DNA of 8,576 nt from a virus. The DNA lies in UHGV virus genome UHGV-1373278; one strand, 5' to 3'. Made by a program: the position numbers and the translations under genes. Positions within the stretch are counted from its first letter, which is position 1, and the number at the start of each line of letters is the position of its first letter. The notes beneath the pieces were generated by a model that saw only the letters and a program-made list of their open reading frames with translations, was not told where the DNA came from and did no database searches. Positions 1,617-8,576 of the stretch are shown here, piece by piece.

Positions 1617-1799
1617 TTAATCCTTTTGTTTGGCAGACATGAGATCTTCTGCTGCATCTTTAGAGTAGTTATCAATCAGATAACCTAAAATCTCTGTCCA
1701 TGTAATTGTTTTTCCTAGTTTTACACTGGCATTTATAGCCAGTCGTTCTAGTTTCATTTTTCTTTCTTCCGTCACGTTATAAGTCGTGCGCTTTGCCAT
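1617..1799 (-). CDS. Small DNA-binding regulator candidate (60 aa, ribbon-helix-helix-like)
   Basis: ATG at 1799-1797. N-terminal pattern KRTTYNVTEERKMKLERLA (beta strand then helix) with a G-K-T helix cap fits an RHH (Arc/CopG-like) fold. Divergent from gII across a repeat-rich intergenic region, the position expected for a phage repressor. Confidence 0.5.
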   Translation of the reverse strand: MAKRTTYNVTEERKMKLERLAINASVKLGKTITWTEILGYLIDNYSKDAAEDLMSAKQKD

Positions 1800-1839: not shown

Positions 1840-1968
1840 ATGCTCATGAACTCATATCATCCAAGCCTCTTGAACTCACTAGCTCACTGGTGTAATGTTA
1901 AAACACTAATGAACTACTGAACTCATGTGTTAGTAAGTCGTCATTTTTGCAATTTTGAGGATTTATTC
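1840..1968 (+). promoter_or_regulatory. gII upstream control region: iterated TGAACT(C/A)(A/C) repeats and a candidate sigma70 promoter; possible (+) origin region
   Basis: Four direct copies of TGAACTCA-like octamers at 1847-1854, 1871-1878, 1911-1918 and 1919-1926. Candidate -35 TTGAAC (1870-1875), 17-nt spacer, -10 TAATGT (1893-1898). GAGG (1957-1960) lies 8 nt before the GTG at 1969. Several short dyad symmetries (TCATGA, TGAGT/ACTCA) at 1830-1855. Confidence 0.4.
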
Positions 1969-3021
1969 GTGATCGATTGGCTTACCGGGATTTTCCCTTG
2001 CACACACAAACCGCTTCCGGCGGGGAGTGTTGTCAGCGTTGATGCTGACGGTGCAATTGAGTGGGAAACCGTTAAGCGACTGACTGTTCGCGGTTCGCAT
2101 GAAGCAACGATGAAAGTACGATCGATAGGATCTAATGGCGAAGGTAAAGCGACACATTTGTACATTGATGGTAATCCTTCCAAGTTTCTGCAGGGGCATT
2201 CTGTTGTTGGGTCGGATGATATACAAGGGCTCATGTTGACGGTCTATGCCAGGATTTTATCCTTATTGAATATTCCTCATGATTTAGCGTCTTATAAAGC
2301 CGTTATGGCAGGTCAGTATAAAATTTCACGTGTTGACATTAATTACATGTATTCATTATCTACGCTGGAAAATGTCAGATCATGGCTTTATGCCGCCGAA
2401 TTTAAAGCTAAAACACGCCATGGTCGCGCATGTGGGAAAGGCGGTACAGTTTATTTAGGTAAAAACTCCCGTCGATGGAGTCTGAAATTTTATTCAAAAT
2501 ATGATGAACACGTTTCTGGTAAAAAAGGGCACCAGATAGCCGAAGAGTTTGTACGAGCCGGGTTACTGGACTGGACGAAAGATAAATTACGTATTGAATT
2601 AACATTAAGAACAACTGAGCTTATTGATTTAAATTTAACGCTTGGCGCTAACTGGAATATGAAAACACCACGTCAATTATTCTCTGAATATGTAGGGAGA
2701 ATAGAAATGAATCAGAATGCTATTTTAAGTGATGAAAAAATAACGAAACTGCCAAGAAAAATACAGTCAACTTATTTACTTTGGAAACAAGGGGCTAACA
2801 TGAAAGAAATGTTACCTCATAACACTTTTTATCGCCATAGAAGAGAATTGCTTTCGTTCGGTATCGATATTAATTTCTATTGTGATTCACCAGACTCTAA
2901 TAACGTTGTTCCGCTAATAAGAACGCTGGAAGCCAAGCCAGCGGAAATCCCCTTATGGATTTATGAGAAAGGTTTTATTTTCGATTACAACCGTATTTCG
3001 CACGCCAGTAGCTGGCATTAA
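1969..3021 (+). CDS. II: Replication initiation protein pII (rolling-circle nickase), Ff gene II homolog
   Basis: No in-frame ATG near the 5' end, so a GTG start is inferred. GTG at 1969 has a GAGG RBS 8 nt upstream and gives MIDWLTG..., like Ff pII MIDMLVL... The alternative GTG at 1927 lacks an RBS. C-terminal region contains NVVPLIR, as in Ff pII (NVVPLVR). First gene in the Ff order. Confidence 0.8.
   Translation: MIDWLTGIFPCTHKPLPAGSVVSVDADGAIEWETVKRLTVRGSHEATMKVRSIGSNGEGKATHLYIDGNPSKFLQGHSVVGSDDIQGLMLTVYARILSLLNIPHDLASYKAVMAGQYKISRVDINYMYSLSTLENVRSWLYAAEFKAKTRHGRACGKGGTVYLGKNSRRWSLKFYSKYDEHVSGKKGHQIAEEFVRAGLLDWTKDKLRIELTLRTTELIDLNLTLGANWNMKTPRQLFSEYVGRIEMNQNAILSDEKITKLPRKIQSTYLLWKQGANMKEMLPHNTFYRHRRELLSFGIDINFYCDSPDSNNVVPLIRTLEAKPAEIPLWIYEKGFIFDYNRISHASSWH
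2707..3021 (+). CDS. X: pX, in-frame internal translation product of gene II (104 aa)
   Basis: In-frame ATG at 2707 preceded by AGGGAGA (2694-2700) with a 6-nt spacer. Product starts MNQNAILSDE, like Ff pX MNIYDDSAVL. An alternative in-frame ATG at about 2660 (MKTPRQ...) is possible. Confidence 0.55.
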   Translation: MNQNAILSDEKITKLPRKIQSTYLLWKQGANMKEMLPHNTFYRHRRELLSFGIDINFYCDSPDSNNVVPLIRTLEAKPAEIPLWIYEKGFIFDYNRISHASSWH

Positions 3022-3032
3022 AGGAAAGTAAT

Positions 3033-3350
3033 ATGTCTAATTATGGTCTTTTCGTTAAGGGTAAAATGTTGGGAGCCCGCCAACGTAATAAAGTTAATGG
3101 TCAGGGCTATTATAATGAAATTGGTATTGGCCTTGAAATACCTGATGGTTTTGGTGGTACAAAGCAGGATCAAATTATTATTCGAGTTTCTCAGGCTCTC
3201 GTTAACGCAGGTCTAATGAACCAGGCGAATGCTTTCATTGGGAAATTAGTTCAAATTCCTGTCTATGTCCGTGCGTGGTCAATGGAGGGTAGGGAAGGTG
3301 TAACTTATAATGTTTCTTCCGATGGTGGCATCGCAGAGATCAAAGGTTAA
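3033..3350 (+). CDS. V: Putative ssDNA-binding protein at the gene V position (105 aa; not recognisably Ff pV-like)
   Basis: ATG at 3033 with AGGA RBS (3022-3025) immediately after the gII stop. Size and position match gene V, but the sequence is Gly-rich and basic and does not match Ff/IKe pV from memory. Confidence 0.6.
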   Translation: MSNYGLFVKGKMLGARQRNKVNGQGYYNEIGIGLEIPDGFGGTKQDQIIIRVSQALVNAGLMNQANAFIGKLVQIPVYVRAWSMEGREGVTYNVSSDGGIAEIKG

Positions 3351-3352
3351 AT

Positions 3353-3439
3353 ATGGACGATGTTATTCAAATTTTGATAGCGTCTGGCATCGTTATTTCT
3401 TTTGGCCTCGGCGCGATTACTGCGGGGGTCTTTCGTTAA
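3353..3439 (+). CDS. VII: Minor coat protein pVII (28 aa)
   Basis: ATG at 3353. Small hydrophobic protein MDDVIQILIASGIVISFGLGAITAGVFR resembles Ff pVII (...ALGIIAGGQR). Stop TAA at 3437-3439 overlaps the next start (TAATG). Confidence 0.6.
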   Translation: MDDVIQILIASGIVISFGLGAITAGVFR

Positions 3440-3534
3440 TGTATATCGTTTATTTCTTCGGGGCTTATACCTTTGGTTTTGCCCTTTTCTATGCGGTCGG
3501 TTCATTTAAATCATTTTCTGACCGATTAATGTAA
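3439..3534 (+). CDS. IX: Minor coat protein pIX (31 aa)
   Basis: ATG at 3439 overlapping the pVII stop. MYIVYFFGAYTFGFALFYAVGSFKSFSDRLM resembles Ff pIX (MSVLVYSFASFVLGWCLRSGITYFTRLMETSS). Confidence 0.6.
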   Translation: MYIVYFFGAYTFGFALFYAVGSFKSFSDRLM

Positions 3535-3553: not shown

Positions 3554-3796
3554 ATGAAAATTCTGTCTACTGTTAAATATAAAATTGCTCTGGCTTCAAC
3601 TGCGCTTTTTATTTCTGCAAGTTCTTTTGCGGCTGAAGGCGCTACAGGTGGTACTGATTATGCAGGTCAGGCAATGGATGCTTTGTTGACTCAGGCAAAT
3701 GATCTCATTGGTAAAGTATGGCCTGTTGTTGTTGCTGTGGTTGGCGCTGGGCTTGCCATTCGTATTTTCAAAAAATTCTCTTCAAAAGCGGTTTGA
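3554..3796 (+). CDS. VIII: Major coat protein pVIII precursor (80 aa; mature about 54 aa)
   Basis: GGAG RBS 8 nt upstream. Signal peptide [26 protein letters not shown], then mature AEGATGG... with a hydrophobic core and basic C-terminus [11 protein letters not shown], close to Ff/IKe pVIII (...KLFKKFTSKAS). Confidence 0.9.
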
Positions 3797-3842: not shown

Positions 3843-5165
3843 ATGAGAAGGAAAATATTAATTCTTTCCGCTGTCCTCATTTCTCCTTTTTCACATGCTG
3901 AGTCATGGGAAAGCATTACTAAATCCACTTATCAAAGTTCTGCCTACGCTGAAAGTAAGCAAATAACCAATCAGGATGGCTCTAAGATAACGGTTTACTA
4001 TATTGATGCTGCTATGCAGGCCTCCGCTTGTCAGGGTGCTAAATCCAGTGCTCAGAGTGTATTTACTCGGATTAAACCAACTTATGAGGGTATCTGGCCT
4101 GATTCTGAATTCCGTCTTGTTTTTACTGGCGATTGTACTTACAGCGATTCACCAGGGCAGAAGGATAAATATTGGTCTTTAACGGCTTATATTGTTGGTA
4201 ATATTCAGCGTTCTGTTCCTGATGAAAAACCTACTGACCCGACACCAGAAGAAATTTGTGAAGCGAAGCCGCCAGAAGAAGGTGTATTTAATAATGTTGA
4301 TTCATATGATGGTGGTCGCTATATCTACTATAACGGCTGTGAATATGAGGCTACTGGTGTCATTGTTTGTCAGGGTGATGGTACTGTTTGCGCTGCAACA
4401 TGGAAGCCTACAGGTGCTGTAGCTGACCCCTCTGATAAACCCTCAACCCCCCAAAATGGTGGTGGTGAGTCTGGCGGTGGTGAGTCCAGCGGTGGTGAGT
4501 CCAGCGGTGGTGAGTCTGGCGGTGGTGAGTCCGGCGGTGGTGAGTCCGGTGGTGGTGAGTCCGGCGGTGGTGAGTCTGGCGGTGGTGAGTCCGGTGGCGG
4601 TAGTTCTGGCGGTAGTTCTGGCGGTGGCTCTAGTGGTTCCAGTCTTTCTAAAGGTGATATTCAGTCTGCGATCGAAGGTGCTTCACCCAAAATAGCCAGC
4701 GATATTCATGATAAATTAACGGAGAAAGACACTTCATCAGATGATAAAAAAAATGCCGATGAACAAACCAGGAATAATATAAATCGTCTTGACGATTCCA
4801 TTAACAATCTTACGCGGGGGGCTGGCCGTTTTGCTGACCCTTCAGGTGGTGATTCTCGTTATGGAAAGGGCGACTCTGAATTAGATGGCGCTTCTACTTT
4901 GGCTGATTCTGAATTGGGAATTGAAAAGGATTCTCACGGTGCTTTATGGGAAGCGTTTTTAAATAAAGGTGCTATGCTGCCTAATTTACCCAATGGTAAC
5001 GGCTGCTCTGATTTTATTATTTTTCCCGGAGAGGTTTATCAGATTGATATTGGTTGCGATAAATTACTGACTATTAAAGATGTTCTTTCATGGGTTTTTT
5101 ATTGCCTTACGTTCTGGTATGTCTTTACTTCTTTAACTTCATTGCTTCGCAAAGGGGGTGAGTGA
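3843..5165 (+). CDS. III: Minor coat / adsorption protein pIII (440 aa)
   Basis: ATG at 3843 with signal peptide [19 protein letters not shown]. Cys motif [25 protein letters not shown] resembles the Ff N1 TolA-binding motif (CLWNATGVVVCTGDETQCYGTWVP). GGGES-repeat linker follows. C-terminal ...[40 protein letters not shown] resembles the Ff pIII C-terminus. The 3699 ORF-track start is an out-of-context upstream extension overlapping gVIII. Confidence 0.9.
4458..4640 (+). repeat. Tandem 15-bp in-frame repeat array encoding the (G-G-E-S-G/S) linker of pIII
   Basis: Nine near-identical 15-bp units GGTGGTGAGTC(T/C)(G/A)GC(G/T) from about 4461 to 4595, then degenerate Gly/Ser codons to about 4640. 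Confidence 0.85.
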
Positions 5166-5506
5166 TGCCTTTATTATTAGGTATTCCTGCATTGTTGCGT
5201 TTTCTTATTGGTCTTGTTCCTTTGTTTATTGGCTATGTGGCGAGTTTTTTAGCTCGACTTGCTACCAGAACAGGATTAATCGCCTTTGCATTGGTCGCAT
5301 TAATTACAACAACTGTTACGCTTTTAATGCAGTACCTTGCTGAGGTCATGTATAACGGTTTACCTGCTGATTTCTCCCATTTAATGGCGTCTGTATTGCC
5401 TGACCATTTTCAGGCGTGTGTTAACGTTATTATGGTTACTCGTATCAGTGTTTTTGTTTTCGATTTAAAACAAAAGTTTCTTGATTATGCAAACAGGGTG
5501 ATTTAA
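5165..5506 (+). CDS. VI: Minor coat protein pVI (113 aa)
   Basis: ATG at 5165 overlapping the gIII stop TGA (ATGA). [24 protein letters not shown]... resembles Ff pVI (MPVLLGIPLLLRFLGFLLVTLFGY...). C-terminal FVFDLKQKF matches Ff FIFDVKQKI. Confidence 0.9.
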   Translation: MPLLLGIPALLRFLIGLVPLFIGYVASFLARLATRTGLIAFALVALITTTVTLLMQYLAEVMYNGLPADFSHLMASVLPDHFQACVNVIMVTRISVFVFDLKQKFLDYANRVI

Positions 5507-6601
5507 ATGGCGGTTTATGTAGTAACAGGCAAATTAGGCTCAGGCAAGACACTTGTTAGTGTTTCCAGAATACAGGAAAGACTTGCTAAGGGTTGTCCTG
5601 TTGCCACTAATCTTGATCTTAAATTGCATAATATGCCTATGGTTGGGCGTTATGCGAAAAAAACGCGCGTTATTCGCATTCCTGACAAGCCTTCATTAAA
5701 TGATTTACTTGCTATTGGTATTGGGAATACATCTTACGATGAATCCCGTAATGGCCTCCTTGTACTTGATGAATGTGGTACTTGGTTTAATTCCCGCTCA
5801 TGGGGTGATAAAGACAGACAACCTGTTATTGACTGGTTTTTACATGCCAGAAAATTAGGCTGGGATATTATATTTTTGATTCAGGATATTTCGATAATGG
5901 ATAAGCAAGCTCGTCTGGCGCTTGCTGAGCATGTTGTTTATTGTCGCCGTTCAGATAAATTAAACATTCCTTTTGTTGGCTCCATTATGAATTTGGTTTC
6001 AGGGGCGAGATTTTCTTTACCAAAGGTACACTTTGGCATTGTCAAATATGGTGATAATGTTAATTCAATCACTGTTGATAAATGGATATATACAGGAAAA
6101 TCTCTTTATTCTGCTTACAATACCAAACAAGCGTTCACAGATAATTATCCTCATGGCGCATTTTCGCTTTTGCCACCATTTATCACGCACGGTCAATTTT
6201 CTGTTCACAGAGGATTTAATTATTATATGCGCCTCACTAAAATTTATTTTCGCAAATCGAACCGTCTTATATTAATGCTTTCTTTTTTGGCGCTGGGGCT
6301 TGCGTTTGGTTTCTGGCTCCAGTCTGGAAAGAATGTTGATGAAATCTCAGCTATTAAATCTGCTTATGCTGAACAGGCGAGGGCGGTAACGCCTGATTCG
6401 TCCAGTAACTTACCCCGACTTTCTATTAATTCTTTTTCACAACTTGGCTTTGACGTTTCCGTTACGTTTGTTGATGCTAAAGGTATGAAATATCAGTATT
6501 TTGATTTGATTAAAGATGGTTATTCCGTTGATATTAAAGATGCCTGTCGTGTTGTTATTAGAAAAGGCCGTTATTTACAGACTGTTACCTGTCAGGAGTA
6601 A
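5507..6601 (+). CDS. I: Assembly ATPase pI (Zot-like, 364 aa)
   Basis: ATG at 5507 immediately after the gVI stop. N-terminus MAVYVVTGKLGSGKTLVSV (Walker A) is nearly identical to Ff pI MAVYFVTGKLGSGKTLVSV. Extensive similarity continues (LLVLDECGTWFN, IIDWFLHARKLGWDIIFL). Confidence 0.9.
   Translation: MAVYVVTGKLGSGKTLVSVSRIQERLAKGCPVATNLDLKLHNMPMVGRYAKKTRVIRIPDKPSLNDLLAIGIGNTSYDESRNGLLVLDECGTWFNSRSWGDKDRQPVIDWFLHARKLGWDIIFLIQDISIMDKQARLALAEHVVYCRRSDKLNIPFVGSIMNLVSGARFSLPKVHFGIVKYGDNVNSITVDKWIYTGKSLYSAYNTKQAFTDNYPHGAFSLLPPFITHGQFSVHRGFNYYMRLTKIYFRKSNRLILMLSFLALGLAFGFWLQSGKNVDEISAIKSAYAEQARAVTPDSSSNLPRLSINSFSQLGFDVSVTFVDAKGMKYQYFDLIKDGYSVDIKDACRVVIRKGRYLQTVTCQE
6227..6601 (+). CDS. XI: pXI, in-frame internal translation product of gene I (124 aa)
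   Basis: In-frame ATG at residue 241 of pI (MRLTKIYFRKSN...), the same position and context as Ff pXI (Met241, MKLTKIYLKKF...), followed by a TM segment. Purine-rich AGAGGA lies about 12 nt upstream. Confidence 0.5.
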   Translation: MRLTKIYFRKSNRLILMLSFLALGLAFGFWLQSGKNVDEISAIKSAYAEQARAVTPDSSSNLPRLSINSFSQLGFDVSVTFVDAKGMKYQYFDLIKDGYSVDIKDACRVVIRKGRYLQTVTCQE

Positions 6602-6608
6602 TATTATT

Positions 6609-7874
6609 ATGCGCTCTGTTATTGTTGCTTTTTTATTTGCCTGTTCATTCTGCGTTTCTGCTGAAACTGTTAATTTAAATAATTCATCTGTTCGCTCATT
6701 TGTTCAGTGGTATTCTTCAAAAACTGGCAAGCCTGTTATTGTTAATCCTGATATTAAAGGAAACGTAACCGTATTTAATGCTGATGTTAATCCAGCAAAT
6801 ATTGATGATTTCTTTAAGTCTGTTCTGAATGCTAACGGTTTTGTCATGCTTTCTGGCAATCCTGCGGTAGTCTCTTTGCCGTCTAAATTACCTTCACAGA
6901 TGGTTTCGGATTCCGATGATTCTGATAACCAGTCTTATGATACTTTTCCTTCTGAGCCATCTTACCAGCCAGTACCTGTGGCGCTTACGGTCAGAAATTT
7001 TAAGCTGACAAAAGTTAGATCGTCCGATGTTCAGCAACTGATTAAAATTTATCTTGATTCTAATGGTGGTGGTAATGTCGTGGATTATCCAGGCAATAAC
7101 TCGCTGATTGTTTCTGCGCCTGACGAGCTGCTGCCGGTTCTGTCCGATTTTATCAATTCTGTGGATGTTGCCCGCGATCAGGTTCTCATTCAGTCGCTGA
7201 TGTTTGAAACCAGCTTGTCTGATGGCGTTGATTTATCGTTTGCGGCAGGTTCTGCATCCGGTCATAAGGTTGCGGGGGGCTTTAATACTTCTGCACTGGG
7301 TAGCGCTCTTTCTACGGCGGGCGGTTCTTTTGGTATTTTTGATGGTAACGTGTTGGCGCTGTCTCTGCGTGCTGTCCAGAGTAATTCACGCTCTAAGGTG
7401 ATTTCAACGCCGCGTATTCTTACTCAGTCTGGTCAGACTGGTTACATTTCCGTAGGTAAGAATGTGCCGTTTATCACCGGAAAGGTAACGGGCGAATCTG
7501 CCGGGGTAAATAATCCGTTTCAGACTATCGAGCGTCATGATGTTGGCGTTTCTCTCAAGGTAACGCCTGTTGTCATGGGTAACGGGCAACTAGTTCTGAC
7601 TATCGACACTCGCGCTGATTCAATCAGCAATGATGATCAGGCATCCGATATTATTACTAATCAGCGCCAGATTCAGACGACAGTCCAGATTAAGGATGGT
7701 CAGACGTTGTTATTGGGGGGGCTTATCGATTCATCGTTCAGCAATGCCGAGCGTTCAGTTCCAGTTATAAGTAAAATTCCTCTTATAGGCTGGATTTTCA
7801 GTAGCAAGGCAGACAGCAATGAACAGCGTATTATGTATATTTTGCTTACAGCACATATCATTCGTCCACTTTGA
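6609..7874 (+). CDS. IV: Outer-membrane secretin pIV (421 aa)
   Basis: ATG at 6609 with AGGAG (6594-6598) about 10 nt upstream. Signal peptide MRSVIVAFLFACSFCVSA. Strong similarity to Ff pIV throughout (VRSFVQWYSS..., NVPFITGKVTGESAGVNNPFQTIERHDVG..., DGQTLLLGGL..., SKIPLIGW-FSS). The 6516 ORF-track start is an upstream extension inside gI. Confidence 0.9.
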   Translation: MRSVIVAFLFACSFCVSAETVNLNNSSVRSFVQWYSSKTGKPVIVNPDIKGNVTVFNADVNPANIDDFFKSVLNANGFVMLSGNPAVVSLPSKLPSQMVSDSDDSDNQSYDTFPSEPSYQPVPVALTVRNFKLTKVRSSDVQQLIKIYLDSNGGGNVVDYPGNNSLIVSAPDELLPVLSDFINSVDVARDQVLIQSLMFETSLSDGVDLSFAAGSASGHKVAGGFNTSALGSALSTAGGSFGIFDGNVLALSLRAVQSNSRSKVISTPRILTQSGQTGYISVGKNVPFITGKVTGESAGVNNPFQTIERHDVGVSLKVTPVVMGNGQLVLTIDTRADSISNDDQASDIITNQRQIQTTVQIKDGQTLLLGGLIDSSFSNAERSVPVISKIPLIGWIFSSKADSNEQRIMYILLTAHIIRPL

Positions 7875-7918
7875 TGGATAGCGGGTAGGTGCGTGAGCCC
7901 TGCTCGCTATCCATCAAA
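7870..7918 (+). other. Large imperfect hairpin overlapping the gIV stop codon (candidate gIV terminator and/or packaging-signal-like hairpin)
   Basis: 14-bp perfect inverted repeat TTTGATGGATAGCG (7870-7883) / CGCTATCCATCAAA (7905-7918) around a 21-nt GC-rich loop that can extend the stem with G-U pairs. No U-run follows. In Ff the post-gIV intergenic region carries a terminator and the packaging hairpin. Confidence 0.4.
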
Positions 7919-7943
7919 TGGACATTATTGATTGGGGTAACTA

Positions 7944-8252
7944 ATGGATTCTTATGGGATTTTATCTGCTCTGGCAGAACGAACGATTACAGCGGAAGAA
8001 GCAAAAACAATGACACTTGCAGCCAGAAGTTCTTCGGCTCAGGTAAATGAAGCATCACTTGCTCTGTTACTGATTGATAATACTCTGGATGCGATCAAAG
8101 CAGCTGCCAGTGAAGGGAAAGGATACACTTTACTTCCTTCTTATGAGATTTCTGTAAAAGCCATTGATTTAGCAGAAGAATTTTTAAGGAAACAATGCGG
8201 CTATGTTATTGATAACCAGAATGGCGTAAGGACGGTCTATTGGTTTATATGA
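7944..8252 (+). CDS. Hypothetical protein (102 aa), accessory ORF downstream of gIV
   Basis: ATG at 7944 with a weak GGGG(T) SD-like element. Ala/Leu-rich, predicted largely helical, no signal peptide. No recognisable homology from memory. Followed by a structured region and a T7 run (8319-8325). Confidence 0.45.
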   Translation: MDSYGILSALAERTITAEEAKTMTLAARSSSAQVNEASLALLLIDNTLDAIKAAASEGKGYTLLPSYEISVKAIDLAEEFLRKQCGYVIDNQNGVRTVYWFI

Positions 8253-8369
8253 TAACCCCGGACAATGACAAAACTTGCTTTTGTTAGTGTCAGGGGTTGG
8301 CCAAGCCGAACAATTCTGTTTTTTTAGCGTTATTGCTGATTCGGCGCGGCAGCATTACGAGGAGATAAA

Positions 8370-8576
8370 ATGCAATTTTTCACATCCAGCGATACTGTAA
8401 TGTTATGTGCGAAGACCTGCGATCGCTGTGGTCGCCATGCGAAGACGGTGGTAGATGACATTGAGTTCAATGAGTTTCTGTCTGTTAATCACTTAGCTGG
8501 ATACGGTTCAATTTTTGGTGACAGTAATCGCTTAAAACTGGATTTATGCCAACATTGCCTGAAAGACGTCCTGGGC
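8370..8576 (+). CDS. Cys-rich (putative zinc-ribbon) hypothetical protein, 5' partial; continues beyond the window
   Basis: ATG at 8370 with strong GAGGAG RBS (8359-8364). Frame open for 69 codons to the window end. Contains C-x3-C-x2-C (CAKTCDRCG) and C-x2-C (CQHC) motifs. Missing from the ORF track because no stop falls in the window. Confidence 0.5.
   Translation, partial: MQFFTSSDTVMLCAKTCDRCGRHAKTVVDDIEFNEFLSVNHLAGYGSIFGDSNRLKLDLCQHCLKDVLG

Follow-up and report, generated by a model that had tools for sequence, protein, structure and literature searches.

The genome of the virus UHGV-1373278 (8,576 nucleotides (nt), analysed as a whole and referred to below as the window) contains a long hairpin at 7864–7923 on the + strand, which straddles the stop codon of gIV, the gene for the secretin pIV that serves as the virion export channel. 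The window phage matches the CUS-1/YpfPhi type of inovirus, which integrates at dif, and the hairpin is likely the packaging (morphogenetic) signal of this type of phage, orthologous to the signal of phage IKe. We infer the packaging function from the structure, conservation, covariation and folding strand of the hairpin and from its homology to the IKe signal, all of which were established directly. Confidence in the assignment is limited by the fact that function rests on homology and that the evidence for IKe is second-hand. A preliminary description of the same DNA had proposed either a morphogenetic signal or an attenuator. The first proposal is now supported by homology, because a covariance model of the hairpin matches the IKe signal, and thus by more than an analogy of position.

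The middle part of the hairpin is formed by two perfect arms, TTTGATGGATAGCG (7870–7883, + strand) and CGCTATCCATCAAA (7905–7918, + strand), which were found by reading the sequence and by a repeat finder. They are complementary at 14/14 positions and are spaced by 21 nt. The 5' arm begins two bases upstream of the gIV stop codon TGA (7872–7874) and contains it, as the preliminary description had stated and as the end of the open reading frame (ORF) at 7874 confirms. This arm covaries among related phages, and the non-coding 3' arm changes in step with it. The spacing of 21 nt had also been described correctly, but its description as a loop does not hold, since most of this stretch is paired: folding adds six pairs between GGTAGG and CCTGCT, two of them G·T, and above this helix follow a bulged (extrahelical) T7890, two further pairs (G-C and C-G) and a GTGA tetraloop (7893–7896), so that only T7890 and the tetraloop are left unpaired. 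This apical core, GGTAGG-T-GC-GTGA-GC-CCTGCT, occupies 7884–7904 (+ strand) and was followed through two alignments of related phages, A2 and A4, and their per-pair tables. Beneath the perfect arms, a bulged C7869 is followed by a basal helix of 5 bp, GTCCA (7864–7868) paired with TGGAC (7919–7923). The complete hairpin therefore comprises 60 nt and 27 pairs: from the base upwards, helices of 5, 20 and 2 bp are separated by the bulges C7869 and T7890, respectively, and the GTGA loop closes the uppermost helix. The three final codons of gIV lie inside the hairpin and make up the 5' side of its basal part.

The folding check that had been proposed for this region thus returned a 27-bp hairpin, and one that is far more stable than shuffled sequences both as RNA and as single-stranded DNA (ssDNA). 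The free energy (ΔG) of the RNA fold is −46.4 kcal/mol, compared with −17.2 ± 3.0 for shuffles (z −9.6), and that of the ssDNA fold is −24.5 kcal/mol, compared with −6.8 ± 2.1 (z −8.5); 0/200 shuffles were as good in either case, and the minimum free energy structure equals the centroid structure for both nucleic acids. When the whole window was scanned with DNA parameters, the hairpin was the top-ranked 80-nt ssDNA fold of the 8.6-kb genome (z −5.7), ahead of 71–150 and 1991–2070. By our arithmetic, chance would yield only about 0.002 perfect inverted repeats with 14-bp arms within 60 nt per 8.6 kb. The structure is far above chance level.

Length and location agree with the signals of the Ff and IKe phages: the hairpin is long (about 20 bp or more) and nearly continuous on the + strand, and it overlaps the gIV stop at the start of the post-gIV region. 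Virions of YpfPhi hold circular + ssDNA, so that a signal on the + strand is required. The covariance model R1, built on the alignment A2, matches IKe at 6146–6193 with 50.7 bits (E ~1e-11 to 1e-12). In the RefSeq record of IKe (NC_002014), the feature 6141–6196 is annotated as 'stem loop structure pot. transcription termination, morphogenetic signal', and gIV ends within it, at 6151. Yeh et al. 2023 (bioRxiv) give nt 6141–6197 for the IKe signal and attribute the functional mapping and genetics of the f1 and IKe signals to Peeters et al. 1985 and Russel & Model 1989. The homology thus extends to a functionally mapped signal, whose mapping is documented here by the annotation and by the citing text. 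When the IKe intergenic region was compared with the window by blastn, only the signal hairpin matched (82% over 38 nt, E 4e-4), and the IKe replication origins had no counterpart in the window in this search.

A short sequence motif adds to this agreement. As quoted from Russel & Model 1989 in Yeh et al. 2023, f1 and IKe share a CGGGT that is closely followed by GGTG on the ascending limb, and the same quoted source holds the orientation of the signal to be critical. The motif was checked in f1 (CGGGTGTGGTG) and on the ascending limb of IKe (CGGGTAGGTG), and in the window it reads CGGGT-A-GGTG at 7882–7891 (+ strand), with CGGGT at 7882–7886 and GGTG at 7888–7891.

The signal of IKe shares further features with the window hairpin, namely the position across the gIV stop, the apical core GGTAGG-T-GC-NNNN-GC-CCTGCC with its conserved T·G wobble and bulged T, and a three-part build of basal helix, interruption at the stop codon and long upper helix. 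The same covariance model detects the signals of the IKe type in IKe, in the Erwinia phages PEar1–6 and in the contig L102 with 50.7–72 bits. The window stem is the more regular one, with 27 pairs and two 1-nt bulges, whereas the IKe stem contains internal loops, and its ssDNA ΔG is −24.5 compared with −18.2 for IKe. The lower stems of the two differ wholly in sequence through compensatory changes. The DNA beyond the hairpin differs as well: in IKe, the replication origins follow within 200–450 nt, whereas in the window two small cargo ORFs, a Xer-type phage attachment site (attP) and a defence-type cargo gene come after the hairpin. Unlike the window phage, IKe is not known to integrate at dif.

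The likeness to Ff is less extensive. Hairpin A of f1/M13/fd (f1 ~5500–5577) is also a long imperfect hairpin of the + strand whose base starts within the gIV stop codon, and it carries CGGGT closely followed by GGTG on its ascending limb. Beyond this short motif, no similarity to the window hairpin was seen in a comparison by eye. With ~78 nt, the f1 hairpin is the longer of the two, and its function is reported to depend little on its loop or sequence (Yeh et al. 2023); in the clade of the window phage, by contrast, the apex is invariant in sequence.

Conservation was assessed on loci of pIV relatives drawn from one-genome-per-species and IMG/VR collections, in which the DNA around each pIV stop was examined. 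All 16 distinct sequences with pIV 70–100% identical fold a hairpin straddling the gIV stop; among them are IKe (L104/L130) and an IKe-like contig of 6,744 nt (L102), and Erwinia phage PEar1 (L201), which was fetched separately, has a hairpin across the gIV stop too. A lack of conservation in related phages, which the preliminary description had named as an observation that would speak against its reading, was therefore not encountered: no relative with pIV at least 70% identical lacks the hairpin, which shows compensatory changes. An initial alignment of 70-nt segments by MAFFT (A1), in which indels were wrongly placed and the RNAalifold consensus was weak, was replaced by A2 and a model-guided alignment. 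In A2, which is ungapped and comprises 49 nt of eight sequences, 93% of the cells are paired and 10/22 pairs have changed on both sides, values reached by 0/500 shuffles; controls with slid pairing partners gave 33–46% paired cells. R1 recovered IKe, L101, L103 and L094 in addition, which led to A4, with 12 distinct sequences, 91% paired cells and 12/22 pairs changed on both sides (0/500 shuffles; slid controls 32–47%). Several pairs in A4 occur as three to five different pair types. Fitting A4 to the model favours the structure, but A2, which was not fitted, leads to the same conclusion. Five relatives remained outside these pair counts, three because they match the model weakly (L090, L096 and L097, the most divergent of the close relatives that it detects, E ~0.004) and two because the model does not detect them (L093 and L098); each of the five folds a hairpin at the stop codon. 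The structure of the hairpin is maintained by selection among these related phages.

Different parts of the hairpin vary in different ways. The apex, GGTAGG-T-GC-(3–4 nt)-GC-CCTGCC, is near-invariant in most relatives, including the T·G wobble and the bulged T. Outside the loop, this core is near-invariant in 11/12 distinct A4 relatives, with L094 deviating at several core positions, and both the T7886·G7902 wobble and the extrahelical T7890 are kept in 12/12 A4 sequences. The G7884·T7904 wobble of the window is a G-C pair in most relatives. The lower stem differs in sequence among the relatives and retains its pairing, as is seen from its arms in the window (GATGGATAGCG / CGCTATCCATC), L091 (GATGGCTGGCG / CGCCAGCCATC), L129 (GAGGGTGCCG / CGGTATCCTC) and L100 (GAGCGTGTCA / TGACACGCGC).

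At greater distances, the fold persists where the sequence does not. The 100 nt at the pIV stop belong to the top 5% of the ssDNA folds of their locus in 27/28 distinct loci with pIV at least 45% identical, being the single best fold in 21 of them, compared with only 1/72 loci with pIV below 45%. The 28 loci cover IKe-like, If1-like, Xenorhabdus and Photorhabdus phages. The post-gIV hairpins of If1-like and Xenorhabdus phages, of which that of If1 follows directly after gIV, are unrelated in sequence to the window hairpin. The apical motif has 70 matches in IMG/VR, but only those adjacent to pIV sit in long hairpins, and all of these belong to relatives already found. In IMG/VR, the pIV-adjacent motif is thus limited to the IKe/CUS-1 clade, and the other matches approximate the number expected by chance for 16 fixed bases. 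A search of Rfam (4,227 families, E up to 1) gave no match at the hairpin; its sole match in the window, at 98–149 inside attP, was at chance level. Within each genome the hairpin occurs in a single copy, which is identical in 48/49 of the E. coli genomes carrying it, and 10 further assemblies that contain the same phage with different cargo genes each have one identical copy at the end of the secretin gene.

The wobble pairs reveal the strand on which the structure is selected. In the stem alignment, 29 cells are G·T and 0 are A·C, which identifies the + strand (packaged and coding-sense) as the selected folding strand, and not its complement. The score of R1 is likewise higher on the + strand (70.8 bits) than on the − strand (35.3 bits). 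Wobbles and model score together provide an evolutionary proxy for the strand specificity of an Ff/IKe-type signal.

G·U wobbles fit an RNA as well as they fit + ssDNA, and the hairpin could therefore act, as its main or as a second function, at the 3' end of the gIV message, either as a Rho-dependent or other non-canonical terminator or attenuator in front of orf102, or as a stem protecting against exonucleases. The high stability of the RNA hairpin (−46.4 kcal/mol), the words 'pot. transcription termination' in the IKe annotation and a major rho-dependent terminator that the literature places in the Ff intergenic region are in line with such a role. It is nevertheless unlikely. Ribosomes halting at the TGA (7872–7874) would melt the lower stem, and orf102 (7944–8252) begins 21 nt 3' of the stem with a Shine-Dalgarno sequence of its own. 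The sequence beyond the hairpin also varies, being non-coding intergenic DNA in IKe and a different sequence in L091, which indicates that regulation of orf102 is not the conserved role and removes the attenuator that had been offered as the alternative to a morphogenetic signal, as far as a conserved function is concerned. A protective stem, finally, would have no need of an apex that is invariant and keeps a mismatch and a bulge. A role that is Rho-dependent or stabilises the mRNA may still coexist with packaging, but it would leave the invariant apex unexplained.

An intrinsic (Rho-independent) terminator can be ruled out. The hairpin resembles one in its G+C-containing stem, its 4-nt loop and its place directly after a stop codon, but its stem is far longer than usual, its apex is invariant and it lacks a U-tract. 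The + strand continues 3' of the stem as ATTATTGATTGGGG, no T-run follows the stem on either strand, and a terminator scan of the window did not report a site. The preliminary description, which had noted the missing U-run and had concluded that the hairpin is not a simple intrinsic terminator, was right on both points. There is no U-tract after the stem in the relatives either: most of them have no T-run directly 3' of it, and a T-rich stretch in L098 lies ~10 nt further on.

How a packaging signal of this kind would work can be deduced from Ff and IKe. In Ff, pV coats the + strand while the signal hairpin stays exposed (cited Ff literature), and pVII and pIX recognise the signal (Russel & Model 1989, as reported in the citing paper). 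In the window phage, rolling-circle replication would release a circular + strand, and dimers of pV would coat it except for the 27-bp duplex at 7864–7923, which would protrude from one end of the rod of pV and DNA. At the inner membrane, the duplex would then be recognised by the C-termini of pVII and pIX, together with the pI/pXI assembly ATPase; for pI, Russel and Model reportedly described a role in reading the Ff signal. Recognition would start assembly and determine which way round the DNA lies in the virion, with pVIII replacing pV during extrusion through the pIV secretin. The 13 C-terminal residues of pVII (SFGLGAITAGVFR) are identical to those of IKe pVII, and pIX keeps the C-terminal pattern FKS.S.R of IKe pIX.

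The conservation pattern suggests that the packaging signal has two parts, an apex read by sequence and shape and a lower stem that needs only to be a duplex. The freedom of sequence in the lower stem would allow its 5' side to code for the C-terminus of pIV, with the non-coding 3' side following these changes. The invariant apex (GGTAGG-T-GC...GC-CCTGCC, with T·G mismatch and extrahelical T) is probably the specificity determinant. A bolder proposal, which is possible but on balance doubtful, is that the apex serves as a sequence-specific address label that is read by the invariant C-terminus of pVII and that sets the packaging specificity of the whole IKe/CUS-1/YpfPhi clade.

Several points weigh against the assignment as a packaging signal. 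For the window phage it depends on homology to IKe, and the functional evidence for IKe is itself available at second hand, as GenBank annotation and as citations of Russel & Model 1989 in later text. Covariation has the same appearance in + ssDNA and in mRNA, so that a role at the RNA level would leave an identical footprint. The genome also contains a second large ssDNA structure, the forked hairpin of attP at 65–158, with a ΔG of −31.4 for the 116-nt stretch that was folded. Furthermore, the signal of integrative Xanthomonas phages is a short hairpin inside gII (Yeh et al. 2023), which means that integrative inoviruses do not always have their signal beside gIV. Like the proposed signal of the window, it is a cis-acting ssDNA stem-loop of an integrative inovirus and is needed for encapsidation, but it has a stem of only 7–8 bp, is independent of orientation, depends on specific loop bases and lies in gII instead of after gIV; no sequence relationship between the two was seen.

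Since Ff and IKe keep their minus-strand origins in the post-gIV region, a stable + strand ssDNA hairpin in this region could also be such an origin, used by RNA polymerase or primase to prime the conversion of the + strand into the double-stranded replicative form. This is very unlikely for the window hairpin. The minus-strand origin hairpins of IKe are annotated separately from the morphogenetic signal, at 6333–6385 and 6410–6438, and the window hairpin has no similarity to them; homology to IKe 6333–6438 was absent, and so was a promoter-like −35/−10 arrangement in the duplex. A promoter scan found no site in or beside the stem. The window also offers other structured candidates for a minus-strand origin, at 1021–1100 and 8254–8298.

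The second of these is an imperfect hairpin with 20-nt arms that are 85% complementary; it starts two bases after the orf102 stop, and a T7 run lies ~20 nt beyond it (~8319–8326). It may be a terminator or a candidate minus-strand origin. At 1043–1100, an element of ~55 nt with three small hairpins matches a section of the If1 'major intergenic region' (5049–5105) at 95–98% identity, although If1 is otherwise diverged from the window (pIV 49% identical). The 58-nt stretch shared with If1 was also tried as a counterpart of the packaging signal and was ruled out, because it maps to this separate element. The element is found in 689/5,426 E. coli genomes, with 428 of the places on plasmids, and in pAPEC-O78-ColV it lies ~60 nt upstream of a gene of the STM4504/CBY_0614 family. 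A priming site or origin and the end of a mobile cargo cassette are candidate functions. The 'major intergenic region' of If1 (L002) further contains an unannotated ORF at ~5140–5310 (− strand), whose DNA is 70% identical over 129 nt to a 60-aa regulator-like gene of the window (1617–1799, − strand). Finally, 1991–2070, in the 5' part of gII, ranks third in stability among the ssDNA folds of the genome (ΔG −21.5, z −4.8); by analogy with the Xanthomonas phages, an origin of replication or a different cis element may lie here within the replication gene.

The hairpin might alternatively be a recombination site, that is, a Xer/dif-type attP hairpin or a site of cargo insertion. The six apical bases GGTGCG are those with which the XerC arm of dif begins, and the match to L091 breaks off directly after TGGAC at 7923. 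Against this, the stem at 7864–7923 has no match to the XerD arm or the central region, the true attP lies elsewhere (65–158), and the same element is present in IKe and the PEar phages, which are presumably non-integrative. The PEar paper describes 10–11 ORFs, all with gene counterparts in IKe. A role in recombination is therefore extremely improbable, and the hairpin was rejected as a Xer attP, since dif-like arms are absent from it.

The final base of the hairpin is also the last one up to which the window and L091 (pIV 93%) are alike, and beyond 7923/7924 the two phages have different ORFs. The 3' foot of the packaging signal thus looks like a cargo-exchange boundary. The attP at 65–158 is built as a forked hairpin of the CTX type from two inverted dif-like sites, GGTGCGCATAA...TTATGTTGAAA and an imperfect inverted partner. 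The first site reads GGTGCGCATAA-TGTACGACTCG-TTATGTTGAAA (~66–98), and the second, inverted site is the complement of GGTTCGCATAA-TGACG-TTATGCTAAA (~133–158); both flank a perfect G+C-rich hairpin of 11 bp. As ssDNA, the forked hairpin has a ΔG of −31.4 (z −7.6) for the stretch 55–170. This arrangement fits the model of XerCD-dependent ssDNA integration proposed for YpfPhi. The attP(+) of CTXphi-type phages and the window hairpin have in common that each is an ssDNA secondary structure of a dif-integrating inovirus, but the window hairpin lacks binding arms for XerC and XerD.

The window represents one complete phage unit of 8,576 nt, as position 8576 directly precedes position 1 in the tandem array NZ_OU342919. 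The gene orf78 (77 aa, with CxxC motifs) spans the ends of the window, from 8370–8576 into 1–27, which shows that the window is either one unit from an array of tandem prophages or a circularly permuted genome. In 47/5,426 complete E. coli genomes, 80% or more of the window is present at ~99% identity. The matches that were inspected are chromosomal and adjoin hipBA, a locus that we take to be dif, and the prophage often occurs in tandem copies. The CUS-1/YpfPhi group is described by Derbise & Carniel as ~8.7 kb in size, integrated at dif, present in tandem copies and packaged as circular + ssDNA, with two small ORFs adjoining attR and variable ORFs adjoining attL. Contigs with the enterobacterial-type inovirus of the window or a relative of it (pIV 49–100% identical) also appear under the names Candidatus Nanosynbacter, SAR11 (a single-cell genome), Actinomadura and Paenibacillus (L003, L009, L012 and L022), labels that most likely reflect contamination or mis-binning.

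The window encodes the standard gene set of an inovirus. The replication gene gII (1927–3021) contains the domains Phage_CRI and G2P_X_C and is followed on the + strand by gV (3033–3350), encoding the ssDNA-binding protein (Pfam Putative_G5P, E 3e-51). Two small ORFs encode the tip proteins that are the presumed readers of the signal: gVII (3353–3439, + strand), with a 28-aa product 71% identical to IKe pVII, and gIX (3439–3534, + strand), with a 31-aa product 58% identical to IKe pIX. An 80-aa ORF at the position of the major coat protein was assigned to gVIII (3554–3796). The gene gIII, which ends at 5165, encodes the attachment protein according to the UM146 annotation; gVI (5162–5506) is a 114-aa ORF annotated with DUF5455 in UM146, and gI (5507–6601) encodes a Zot protein. 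The gene gIV (6609–7874, + strand) was identified by the Pfam domains Secretin, Secretin_N and GspD N0 and by the RefSeq record of E. coli UM146, in which an identical prophage is annotated. The ORF ending at 7874 comprises 452 codons, and the RefSeq start in UM146 is equivalent to 6609. In gIII, tandem 15-nt repeats of GGTGGTGAGTCCrGC (~4460–4600) encode a Gly/Ser/Glu-rich linker in the attachment protein, and the length of pIII varies between 414 and 431 aa among prophage copies; the gIII ORF of the window has 488 codons. The cargo gene adjoining attP (163–963, − strand) encodes a 266-aa protein with a C-terminal Shedu SduA nuclease domain (PF14082, E 2e-25), which means that this filamentous prophage carries a gene of the anti-phage defence type. 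At its place, other prophage copies contain a member of the STM4504/CBY_0614 family, a PD-(D/E)XK nuclease, Fic, Mob_CxxC_CxxC or unnamed ORFs.

An element of this kind is textbook knowledge and is to be expected in such a phage, but it is newly pointed out here for the CUS-1/YpfPhi prophage group, and the result is confirmatory rather than surprising. No description of a packaging signal for CUS-1/YpfPhi was found in the YpfPhi/CUS-1 review or in the searchable literature, and the packaging signals of integrative filamentous phages have been described as largely unknown (Yeh et al. 2023). CUS-1/YpfPhi phages have been connected with fitness in E. coli K1 and Yersinia pestis (cited literature), and YpfPhi is reported to be 99% identical to CUS-1. 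The clean covariation indicates that the signal has stayed on the gIV stop although two small ORFs, attP and a defence-type cargo gene have split the rest of the ancestral intergenic region. The located signal provides a 60-nt element for the construction of phagemids and helper phages, for tracking mobilisable DNA and for comparing recognition across phages of the IKe type. If the apex were indeed an address label, phages of the IKe type and the CUS-1/YpfPhi prophages of E. coli and, given the 99% identity, also of Yersinia pestis could package each other's ssDNA, any replicon that gained the 50-nt element could be packaged, and the hairpin would constitute a ready-made orthogonal packaging tag for phagemid engineering.

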